This document shows positions 24,273 to 24,761 of a stretch of DNA of 64,000 bases, in pieces. The notes beneath the pieces were generated by a model, which was not told the origin of the DNA, did no database searches, and saw only the letters and a list, made by a program, of their open reading frames with translations. Where the stretch lies: positions 47,544-111,543 of the forward strand of contig CALANV010000058.1 of the NCBI GenBank assembly GCA_937926175.1, in the 5' to 3' direction. The stretch comes from an uncultured Rhodospirillales bacterium. GTDB taxonomy: Bacteria > Pseudomonadota > Alphaproteobacteria > CACIAM-22H2. The position numbers were made by a program, and so were the translations under genes. Numbering within the stretch: the stretch's first letter is position 1; every line of letters starts with the position of its first letter.

Positions 24273-24320
24273 AAAAAAGGAAATGCGTTGGGTGGTGTGG
24301 CCGCCCAACGCATTCTGTAG
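24273..24320. terminator. bidirectional Rho-independent terminator (11-bp stem) between sugE and the micro-ORF
   Basis: aaaaaaGGAAATGCGTTGGGtggtgtggccgCCCAACGCATTctg. An A-run lies on the plus side and TCCTTTTTT on the minus side. Confidence 0.75.
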
Positions 24321-24368
24321 GTTAACCTATAGTGCAAATTGCTTATTCTAACGCACCGAACGAAGAAG

Positions 24369-24419
24369 TTACTTCTTCTTCTTCGCGGTCTTCTTCTTTG
24401 CTTTCTTCTTCGCTGCCAT
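24369..24419 (-). CDS. 16-aa poly-lysine micro-ORF [16 protein letters not shown]
   Basis: Canonical SD AAAGGAG 8 nt upstream of the ATG, rare in this GC-rich genome. TAA stop. The terminator above lies about 50 nt downstream. Embedded in an AT-rich island. Confidence 0.4.
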   Translation of the reverse strand: [16 protein letters not shown]

Positions 24420-24761
24420 GTTTGAGACTCCTTTTTCCGATGTGCCGGATCGACGCGGGCGCGAGAGGAGACGGATTTGTGGGTGCGAAGCGATGATGTT
24501 CCCGTCCGATCGAACGACGCCCACCCCTACGGATCGATCCGAACGCGTATAGAGCATCAGCAAAATCAACCCGGTGTCAACTAAATTCAATATGCAGGGG
24601 CTTGACAAAAGCCATCTACAATATCGTGCGGCCGCCACGAAACCTGGGCCCTGCCGGCCAGTGGAACTCAAGATGCGGGTAGAGCCGCGCCGGACGGAAA
24701 AGGGGAAAGTCGCGCCAACCTCCAGGCTTTGGCCACAGGCGCTGGATGAGGGGGCGACGCC

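Follow-up and report, generated by a model that had tools for sequence, protein, structure and literature searches.

A conserved candidate micro-gene for a lysine-rich peptide behind ftsY in Rhodospirillales

Can a reading frame of 16 codons, 11 of which specify lysine, be a gene in its own right in a bacterium rich in G+C, and, if so, is it the peptide or the RNA that acts? The question is raised by positions 24273-24760 of a 64-kb stretch of contig CALANV010000058.1 (assembly GCA_937926175.1, an uncultured Rhodospirillales bacterium), the whole of which is referred to below as the window. Here a short open reading frame (ORF), called the micro-ORF, lies on the minus strand between ftsY, which is upstream of it, and the convergent gene sugE. 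It reads ATG GCA GCG AAG AAG AAA GCA AAG AAG AAG ACC GCG AAG AAG AAG AAG TAA, so that beyond methionine and lysine the peptide holds alanine and threonine. A preliminary description, made from the letters of the window, had located this frame at 24419-24369 and had preferred a stand-alone micro-protein to a leader peptide. The position and sequence are borne out. The preference also holds up, against a leader peptide and against spacer noise, in that the ORF, its Shine-Dalgarno (SD) sequence and the promoter block are kept behind ftsY and the rest of the spacer is not. Judged on comparative evidence, the micro-ORF is a gene, very likely a genuine one that belongs to a conserved family. The effector is probably the peptide and not the RNA, and any particular binding target is named with low confidence. 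Transcription, translation, stability of the peptide and its binding target are predictions from sequence throughout.

Conservation of the reading frame

A collection of genomes was scanned with FtsY, and no property of the ORF was used for the selection of the 80 loci that were returned. The micro-ORF was present about 350 nucleotides (nt) past the ftsY stop and on the same strand in 16 of them, and the FtsY proteins of these loci were 61-97% identical to that of the window. The 16 carriers are Rhodospirillales, mostly Tagaea; by their records they comprise uncultured Alphaproteobacteria, Tagaea, and metagenome-assembled genomes (MAGs) that bear the labels Rhodospirillaceae, Rhodospirillales, Azospirillum and Proteobacteria. 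The peptides of these relatives consist of a shared decapeptide followed by (A/T)AKKK(K/Q), together with two other forms of 15 residues, and AAGGAG stands before each. A profile of the region gave no match in other FtsY loci (Reyranella, Geminicoccaceae and others) and a single match in the window.

Twelve distinct nucleotide versions of the micro-ORF were found among the FtsY-guided loci. Within codons 1-10 these versions differ at six third positions, at one first position (GCN to TCG) and at no second position. The sole change of length is an in-frame indel of 3 nt, and the ATG, the SD and the in-frame stop are retained in all 12. All lysine codons are AAR (AAG or AAA), despite a window of 67.5% G+C, and residues other than lysine are conserved too, namely MAA and the alanines at 7 and 11-12. 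Alignment columns are invariant at 35 of 51 positions in the ORF; the corresponding counts are 8 of 110 for the leader hairpin and 5 of 54 for the 3' untranslated region (UTR). The pattern of variation in the codons and the invariance of columns argue for selection on a reading frame; the features by which purifying selection on a protein-coding gene is recognised, that is, synonymous bias, an indel of 3 nt and conserved start and stop, were all found. Down to FtsY identities of 61-69% it is the ORF itself that is conserved and not merely an AT-rich spacer, which was the distinction on which the preliminary description had left its case to depend.

Linkage to ftsY is also seen outside this set. 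In the metagenomic locus L186 (560-952 and 1238-1288) the micro-ORF stands directly after the ftsY 3' end with a related promoter, and the linkage therefore reaches beyond the Tagaea clade. Locus L110 likewise carries the micro-ORF with a related promoter; the G+C fractions of the L186 and L110 lineages are 0.57 and 0.72. Within the window the frame has no counterpart, since it is alone among small ORFs in having at least 45% lysine. The lysine-codon pattern AARAARAARNNNAARAARAAR has a single occurrence there, and 100 dinucleotide-preserving shuffles yielded none.

Predicted transcription unit and RNA structures

The features of the locus, in window coordinates, are as follows.

23929-24246, plus strand: sugE, convergent toward the micro-ORF
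24273-24314, minus strand: intrinsic terminator, a perfect stem of 11 bp (13 bp with one mismatch), then UCCUUUUUU
24346-24359, minus strand: 3'-UTR box TCGGTGCGTTAGAA, of which CTCGGTGCRT recurs in almost every clade member and GCGTTAGAA in L186 as well
24360-24386, minus strand: predicted ORF-end hairpin, in which the last lysine codons GCGAAGAAG pair with a pyrimidine run after the stop, CUUCUUCGU, with the stop codon in the loop
24369-24419, minus strand: micro-ORF of 16 codons, ATG at 24419-24417 and TAA stop at 24371-24369
24428-24433, minus strand: Shine-Dalgarno sequence AAGGAG, with 8 nt between GGAG and ATG, invariant in all relatives
24442-24544, minus strand: long hairpin of the 5' leader, with closing helix GUUCGGAUCGA/UCGAUCCGG, second helix GGGUGGGCG/CGCGCCCGC and variable distal helices
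24553-24558, minus strand: -10-like hexamer GATGCT (GATGTT in relatives), after a 16-nt spacer and within the near-invariant block GATGTTCTA
24575-24580, minus strand: -35 hexamer TTGACA, exact consensus, invariant in 25 of the 25 clade loci examined
24581-24600, minus strand: A/T-rich block CCCCTGCATATTGAATTTAG directly 5' of the -35, UP-element-like by its position and composition
24762-25673, minus strand: ftsY, upstream of the micro-ORF

The clade alignment contains a near-invariant island upstream of the leader, composed of CCCC..C.TATTGAATTT, TTGACA, 16 nt and GATGTTCTA. Its TATTGA, with flanking C-run and T-run, is kept in all clade members, and the neighbouring spacer is not alignable. 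The exact TTGACA at 24580-24575 bears out the TTGACA-like boxes that had been reported for this interval, and the -10-like hexamer retains A2 and T6. These elements suggest a sigma-70-type promoter in which a UP-like block stands before a perfect -35 and the -10 is weak; from it, by conservation, transcription is predicted to start at about 24546. The signals seen for a putative independent unit are a conserved UP-like block, TTGACA, 16 nt and GATGTT on one side and hairpin and U-run terminators on the other. Farther upstream, TGTCAA, the exact inverted repeat of the -35 TTGACA, occurs at 24602-24607 (minus strand), 21 nt from it. Many clade members retain this hexamer and the L019 type lacks it; it may serve as an operator or as a divergent -35.

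AAGGAG at 24433-24428, together with the preceding A, is the AAAGGAG at 8-nt spacing that the preliminary description had called exceptional. The site is rare in the window and not unique there, as five cases of AAGGAG followed by a start at 4-10 nt are found on its two strands. In folds of the leader alone the SD is single-stranded. A pair of GGA motifs of the CsrA type beside the SD was considered and set aside, as it is not conserved in the alignments of the Burkholderiales group described below. At the other end, the terminator begins 54 nt past the stop, where a perfect 11-bp hairpin about 50 nt after the TAA had been noticed earlier. Its stem is formed by AATGCGTTGGG (24314-24304) and CCCAACGCATT (24292-24282), after which TCCTTTTTT extends to 24273. 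Each clade lineage has a terminator; that of the window was not called by the scanner because its hairpin loop exceeds the scanner's limit of 8 nt.

The leader folds into the same rod in every clade member when sequences are folded singly. The helices common to the clade are the closing helix GUUCGGAUCG/CGGUCCGAC and the second helix GGGAGGGC/GCCUUUCCC, and CAUCGGAAA(C)AAGGAGUC and the AUG stay single-stranded. For the clade transcript as a whole RNAalifold gave a poor consensus, since the leader cannot be aligned in its middle part, and it was replaced by the single-sequence folds and a covariance model. The model was built on ten Tagaea-type leaders and recovers the window (26.9 bits) and other divergent members. 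In its alignment 92.3% of cells are paired, a figure that falls to 40-54% once the partners are slid, and 19 pairs are changed on both sides, compared with 5-10 in slid controls; these counts of covariation come from an alignment that was itself fitted to the model. A 5'-leader hairpin of about 100 nt is thus a prediction supported by covariation. The ORF-end hairpin is predicted in most lineages and from different arms: CGAAGAAG/CUUCUUCG in the window and L001, GAAGCAG/CUGCUUC in L002, GAAGGCCGCU/AGCGGUUUUC in Tagaea, and GAAGAAGA/UCUUCUUC in L110 and L186.

The interval had been described as an unusually AT-rich spacer of roughly 350 nt in a genome of about 70% G+C. The latter figure is not borne out for the window (67.5%). 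The interval 24273-24760 has a G+C fraction of 0.549 against 0.675 for the 64 kb and is the lowest-GC stretch of 488 nt in it, tied with one near 16,700. The low values are concentrated in 24273-24600 (0.506), and 24600-24760 is near normal; the description as AT-rich therefore stands for the first part alone, and what had been taken for spacer is rather a putative promoter and a leader of roughly 125 nt predicted to fold as a conserved hairpin. A second low-GC island, at 16870-17100, is intergenic and lies between the gene for a 180-residue protein (16324-16866, minus strand), with two putative cold-shock domains, and pgk (17105-18307, plus strand), both named by reading of their translations.

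The micro-gene stands at the end of a minus-strand cluster at 24762-27860 that contains dapF (about 27003-27860), an mtaB-like radical-SAM gene (25670-26974) and ftsY. The order dapF-mtaB-ftsY is a common alphaproteobacterial arrangement, and it places a gene of the lysine pathway, dapF, two genes upstream of the micro-ORF. The gene ffh (SRP54) is divergent to this cluster at 28606-29955 (plus strand). A match to the ffh small RNA (RF01793) was obtained in a Tagaea-type locus (L145:3096-3147, minus strand; 38 bits, gathering score 35), and none at threshold in the window. On the side of sugE, a Guanidine-II (mini-ykkC) riboswitch occupies 23860-23907 (plus strand; 47.1 bits, gathering score 32) immediately 5' of the gene. 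It is the sole Rfam match in the whole window, and its pairing with a small multidrug-resistance gene of the SugE/Gdx type is the one expected for a guanidinium exporter.

Relatives in metagenomes and in databases

Metagenomes were scanned with the pattern AAGGAG, 4-10 nt, ATGGCNGCN(AAR)3NNN(AAR)2AA, and at least 120 loci were found. The pattern fixes MAAKKKxKKK, and the invariance of the N-terminus is in part by construction outside the loci reached through FtsY, LysA or the regulator named below. Among the matches listed, most are ORFs of 10-23 codons with the shared decapeptide start, on contigs of 36-72% G+C. Grouping of these matches by upstream similarity separated one group of 44 loci, one of 28 loci, the clade of the window and about a dozen singletons; leaders are unrelated and neighbouring genes different across the groups. 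The group of 44 (G+C about 0.53-0.56) encodes a peptide of 16 residues; a sigma-54 response regulator precedes the micro-ORF, and a TlpA-like thioredoxin and CcdA follow it. The group of 28 encodes a peptide of 20 residues and has lysA directly upstream. A terminator-like site within 150 nt downstream was found at 97 of 106 distinct loci among the matches listed, against 92 of 530 control windows, and a promoter-like site upstream at 69 of 102, against 36 of 510 controls. The same pattern in 2.9 million viral contigs gave four matches, all in ordinary proteins of 56-107 residues.

Beyond selection by the pattern, the loci of the family share conserved flanks. Loci fetched through relatives of LysA carry the micro-ORF in gaps without a called gene, as do those fetched through relatives of the sigma-54 regulator. 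The nearest named matches of the LysA relatives are MAGs of Burkholderiales/Betaproteobacteria (72-77% identity); those of the regulator are Candidatus Binatia (75-86%), with one record named Deltaproteobacteria bacterium 13_1_40CM (72%). The micro-ORF family thus appears to occur in three lineages assigned through neighbouring genes, namely Rhodospirillales, in which Tagaea belongs, Burkholderiales and Candidatus Binatia, which is in a separate candidate phylum; for the latter two groups the taxonomy rests solely on the names of those matches. In the records examined the micro-ORF was never annotated as a gene.

In the Binatia group (44 loci, for example L167:8794-9087, plus strand; also L209 and L210) a highly conserved RNA of about 290 nt surrounds the micro-ORF. 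It has two long-range complementarities, GGGAGGGUUU with AAACCCUCC (94% paired) and CGCCUGAG with CUCAGGCG (98% paired), which cross one another and so imply either alternative states or a pseudoknot. The stop is followed by a tract rich in G and U, and the RNA further contains a 3' hairpin that covaries and a terminator. The element AAACCCUCCUUA presumably resembles the anti-SD end of 16S ribosomal RNA (rRNA), and it could pair with the ORF's own AAGGAGG.

Longer lysine-rich proteins, of 57-128 residues, open with the identical decapeptide, and some share the promoter and leader of the Burkholderiales-group type. Those of 89-99 residues (L084, L089, L098, L108, L112, L114, L135, L157, L158, L160, L180 and L194) have repeats rich in lysine, serine and arginine and a conserved C-terminal tail ...AAPMKPTAPAVTPVITPLIKPMS. 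Their genes have a CTTGACA-N17-CATAGAAT promoter, a leader that resembles those of the Burkholderiales-group micro-ORFs and, past the stop, a conserved GC-rich segment that looks structured. The same start and a related leader suggest an evolutionary link of the micro-ORF to histone H1-like proteins, which is plausible. Profile scores of these long relatives were below threshold (NCBIfam NF038053, 11.6-17.2 bits against a cut-off of 80; Pfam PF07382, 12.7 against 40), and their likeness to the H1-like models is at the level of composition. In a contig of 40% G+C (L140:6369-6871, micro-ORF on the plus strand), a protein of 121 residues ending in (VAKKK)n is followed after 47 nt by an ORF of 30 codons with its own SD, so that two lysine-rich genes stand in tandem.

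Searches of databases have returned no described family. Rfam 15 gave nothing in 24273-24760 at E <= 10, and at the gathering score no Rfam family covers the element in the window or in 19 related loci, the other matches being unrelated. Pfam and NCBIfam gave no match even at E <= 10 with family members of 20-30 residues as queries, the 16-residue peptide of the window being outside this set, and a sequence search of the PDB with phmmer found no chain at E <= 10. An exact look-up of six family peptides of 20-30 residues in 15 billion proteins found none (16-residue forms were outside the query), a homology search with a lysine-rich relative of 96 residues found nothing at E <= 0.001, and blastn of three group representatives against plasmids gave no match. 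A search of the literature on lysine-rich small ORFs, ribosomal proteins, leader peptides and polylysine found no paper with the shared decapeptide or describing the gene, and the main text of a paper on the set of small proteins of S. meliloti has nothing comparable. A tRNA or tmRNA was also considered and rejected, as ARAGORN found none in the window and the micro-ORF has an SD and an AUG. With no profile match for members of 20-30 residues, scores under the cut-offs even for the long relatives, and a single repeat unit in place of tens, the micro-ORF falls outside the H1-like families (PF07382 HC2, NF038053), and with no NCBIfam, Pfam or PDB match it falls outside the known small ribosomal proteins (bL37, bS22, bTHX and others). 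By sequence, then, the element would stand outside every described family, and the kind to which it is best assigned is that of a very small basic protein gene.

Proposed product and competing explanations

On balance, an autonomous, monocistronic micro-gene is favoured, whose polycationic peptide would be the effector and would bind nucleic acid or ribosomes. A promoter made up of the UP-like block, TTGACA, 16 nt and GATGCT would direct a transcript of about 270 nt from near 24546. Its first 100 nt or so would form a 5'-terminal hairpin that probably shields the RNA from decay dependent on the 5' end. With AAGGAG single-stranded 8 nt before the AUG and two alanine codons next, initiation should be efficient; the 16 codons would be translated, and the terminating ribosome would have to open the small hairpin that holds the last lysine codons and the stop. 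The intrinsic terminator would end the RNA short of the convergent sugE. Methionine aminopeptidase removes the initiator methionine when residue 2 is alanine, and its removal is therefore expected here, leaving a product of 15 residues, 11 of them lysine, that would itself be functional.

The composition of the peptide suggests binding to nucleic acid or ribosomes, and the product may be pictured as an abundant, ribosomally made polycation on the phosphate backbone of RNA or DNA. Two modes may be envisaged, namely a single unit of an H1-type AKKK tail, or a tiny basic peptide that fills clefts in rRNA. Alanine recurs at every fourth position (3, 7 and 11), so that the peptide, as a helix, would present a narrow stripe of alanine and a wide face of lysine, like an H1-type AKKK unit. 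The H1-like proteins (Chlamydia Hc1/Hc2, Pseudomonas AlgP, Burkholderia NF038053) have the composition and AKKK-type periodicity of the micro-ORF, whereas the latter has 16 codons, a single repeat unit and a conserved size.

For the second mode, the proteins bL37 and bS22 of mycobacteria, bTHX of Thermus and eL41 of eukaryotes and archaea are tiny and highly basic. A basic peptide of 22 residues, CLaSP, has been found in the large subunit of Coxiella by cryo-electron microscopy alone, at a position that overlaps bL37 (10.1101/2025.11.08.686982). This precedent keeps the ribosome option open. Like the micro-ORF product, these peptides, of 16-33 residues, are highly basic and often escape annotation. 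The strong SD and predicted promoter of the micro-ORF would suit a stoichiometric component. In contrast, the known peptides contain arginine, histidine and aromatic residues that make specific contacts with rRNA, and the micro-ORF peptide holds only lysine, alanine and threonine; they have no sequence relation to it, and no link to ribosomal operons was seen at its loci. General binding to the backbone, whether of the nucleoid or of the RNA and ribosome surface, is therefore favoured over a specific rRNA pocket.

Several observations weigh against a micro-gene with a peptide effector. The -10 is weak, and because it matches TATAAT at three of six positions the consensus scanner called no promoter. 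When the full-length RNA of the window is folded, the SD region GAAAAAGGAG (24427-24437) pairs with the terminator tail UUCCUUUUUU (24273-24282), so that the SD would be masked in the finished transcript, which opposes translation. As a general feature such pairing was rejected, its complementarity being weaker or absent in relatives by reading of their tail sequences. The window leader is no more stable than shuffles (z = -0.22), and the ways in which leader covariation was counted and the metagenome pattern was fixed, as stated above, also count on this side. A specific ribosomal site is doubtful for a peptide of lysine and alanine that lacks arginine, histidine and aromatics, and short free peptides are usually degraded fast. 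The strict use of lysine over arginine in a GC-rich genome fits selection on lysine codons or on a purine-rich RNA as well. Lastly, the Binatia leaders are conserved far beyond the need of a plain mRNA, which hints at a role at the RNA level in that group.

The serious rival is accordingly a translation-sensing riboregulator or dual-function small RNA, in which the RNA would be the effector and would be remodelled by translation of the lysine run; it is considered unlikely. Translation of the run would depend on the supply of lysyl-tRNA or the availability of ribosomes and might, as one route, open the ORF-end hairpin, which would alter stability, pairing with a target or read-through. Conserved non-coding structure speaks for it (the 5' hairpin, the hairpin at the ORF end and stop from varied arms, and the box CTCGGTGCRT), as do the two nearly invariant complementarities that enclose the ORF in Binatia, the strict use of lysine against GC bias and lysine-pathway neighbours in two groups (lysA adjoining in the Burkholderiales group, dapF two genes upstream here). 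This linkage to dapF and lysA is anecdotal, however, and there is no common target or downstream gene. The leaders of the three groups differ in sequence and architecture while the start of the peptide is identical, which makes the coding part the common denominator, and the residues other than lysine noted above are conserved too. Known dual-function RNAs (SgrS/SgrT, RNAIII/hld, SR1/SR1P, rnTrpL/peTrpL) resemble the micro-gene in being monocistronic, of about 200-300 nt, and structured around a very short ORF. They differ from it in that what is constant across lineages here is the peptide and not the RNA, with no target or seed identified and no Rfam family. The example of peTrpL (14 residues) is reported to show that such peptides can act in trans (PMC7298713).

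An attenuator leader peptide for a downstream gene is improbable. It would serve an EamA-family gene in the Tagaea type and would have been orphaned in the window by insertion of sugE and a sugar-kinase gene. Tagaea-type loci do have a co-oriented EamA-family gene 84-229 nt after the micro-ORF stop, and the orthologue in the window (21801-22826, minus strand) lies 1.5 kb farther on, past sugE and the sugar-kinase gene. The earlier statement that there is no downstream gene to attenuate is accordingly true of the window and does not extend to these relatives. As in hisL, thrL, pheL and trpL, a hairpin and terminator come after a tiny ORF in which one amino acid is specified by a run of codons (11 lysines among 16 codons). 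On the other hand, the place expected of an attenuator, ahead of a regulated operon on the same strand, is not kept: the window (sugE), L001 (a gene of 110 residues) and L009 (one of 568 residues) each have a convergent gene next, and ORF, promoter block and SD are intact in all three. Downstream genes are unrelated or convergent in the other groups, and this change of partner while the micro-ORF stays by ftsY argues against an attenuator. L019-type loci have a canonical hairpin and U-run terminator between the micro-ORF and EamA. A hairpin does overlap the ORF end, but nothing was found in the clade loci that could pair with the terminator's 5' arm and so act as antiterminator. Unlike the classical leaders, the micro-ORF has no conserved downstream operon, a strong predicted promoter of its own and a long structured leader; a strong UP-type promoter with a perfect SD would be unusual for the leader of a transporter gene.

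It is very improbable that the locus encodes a non-coding small RNA in which AAG/AAA repeats serve as (A-R-N)n sites for the distal face of Hfq and the ORF is incidental. The distal face of Hfq is specific for the A-R-N motif, which the AAG/AAA triplets fit, and a predicted promoter of its own, a length of about 270 nt and a terminator form a small-RNA layout. Such sites would, however, allow AAC, AAU and AGN, and the FtsY-retrieved versions have only AAR; AUG, SD spacing and in-frame stop are conserved, the indel is of 3 nt, and conserved GCN codons break the runs of triplets.

Hardly credible, finally, is either a relic of a longer H1/AlgP-like gene, which the preliminary description had raised and for which the lysine-rich proteins of 57-128 residues with the same start, some with a Burkholderiales-type promoter and leader, could be cited, since stop codon and small size are conserved (15-16 codons down to 61% FtsY identity, 10-23 codons family-wide) where a relic would drift, or an antisense shadow of a hydrophobic toxin gene on the plus strand, for which (AAG)n would encode peptides rich in leucine and phenylalanine and an ATG-initiated MHRAKTAYFFFLAAFF... 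ORF exists in the Tagaea type, since a 1-nt indel in L019 shifts the antisense frame and third-position alanine changes are radical in it (Cys, Gly, Arg, Ser). As a type I toxin the antisense candidate was rejected, its plus-strand ORFs differing in frame, start and length, being absent in several lineages and almost never having an SD.

For a micro-gene whose peptide acts, several features are unusual, namely a nearly pure lysine product in genomes of two-thirds G+C, a first decapeptide identical across Rhodospirillales, Burkholderiales and Candidatus Binatia, and predicted expression signals as strong as those of ribosomal components. The case also illustrates a blind spot, in that the gene is not called, members of 20-30 residues are absent from the protein collection and tryptic proteomics would miss the peptide. 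The RNAs that surround the micro-ORF, those of the Binatia group above all, would themselves count as structured RNAs not reported before. Should the peptide be made, it would be among the shortest conserved gene products of bacteria and a new class of small protein, and it would be a candidate for unexplained basic density in preparations of ribosomes or nucleoids. More tentatively, these elements may form an unrecognised family of stand-alone poly-lysine micro-genes in more than one phylum, of 10-23 codons, each within a small structured RNA, with a product that is a new constituent of ribosome or nucleoid. Such a family would have been missed because gene callers skip ORFs of this length and trypsin destroys the peptide. 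If this proves true, Alphaproteobacteria, Betaproteobacteria and Binatota would possess a 'ribosomally made polyamine' or a minimal H1 tail.

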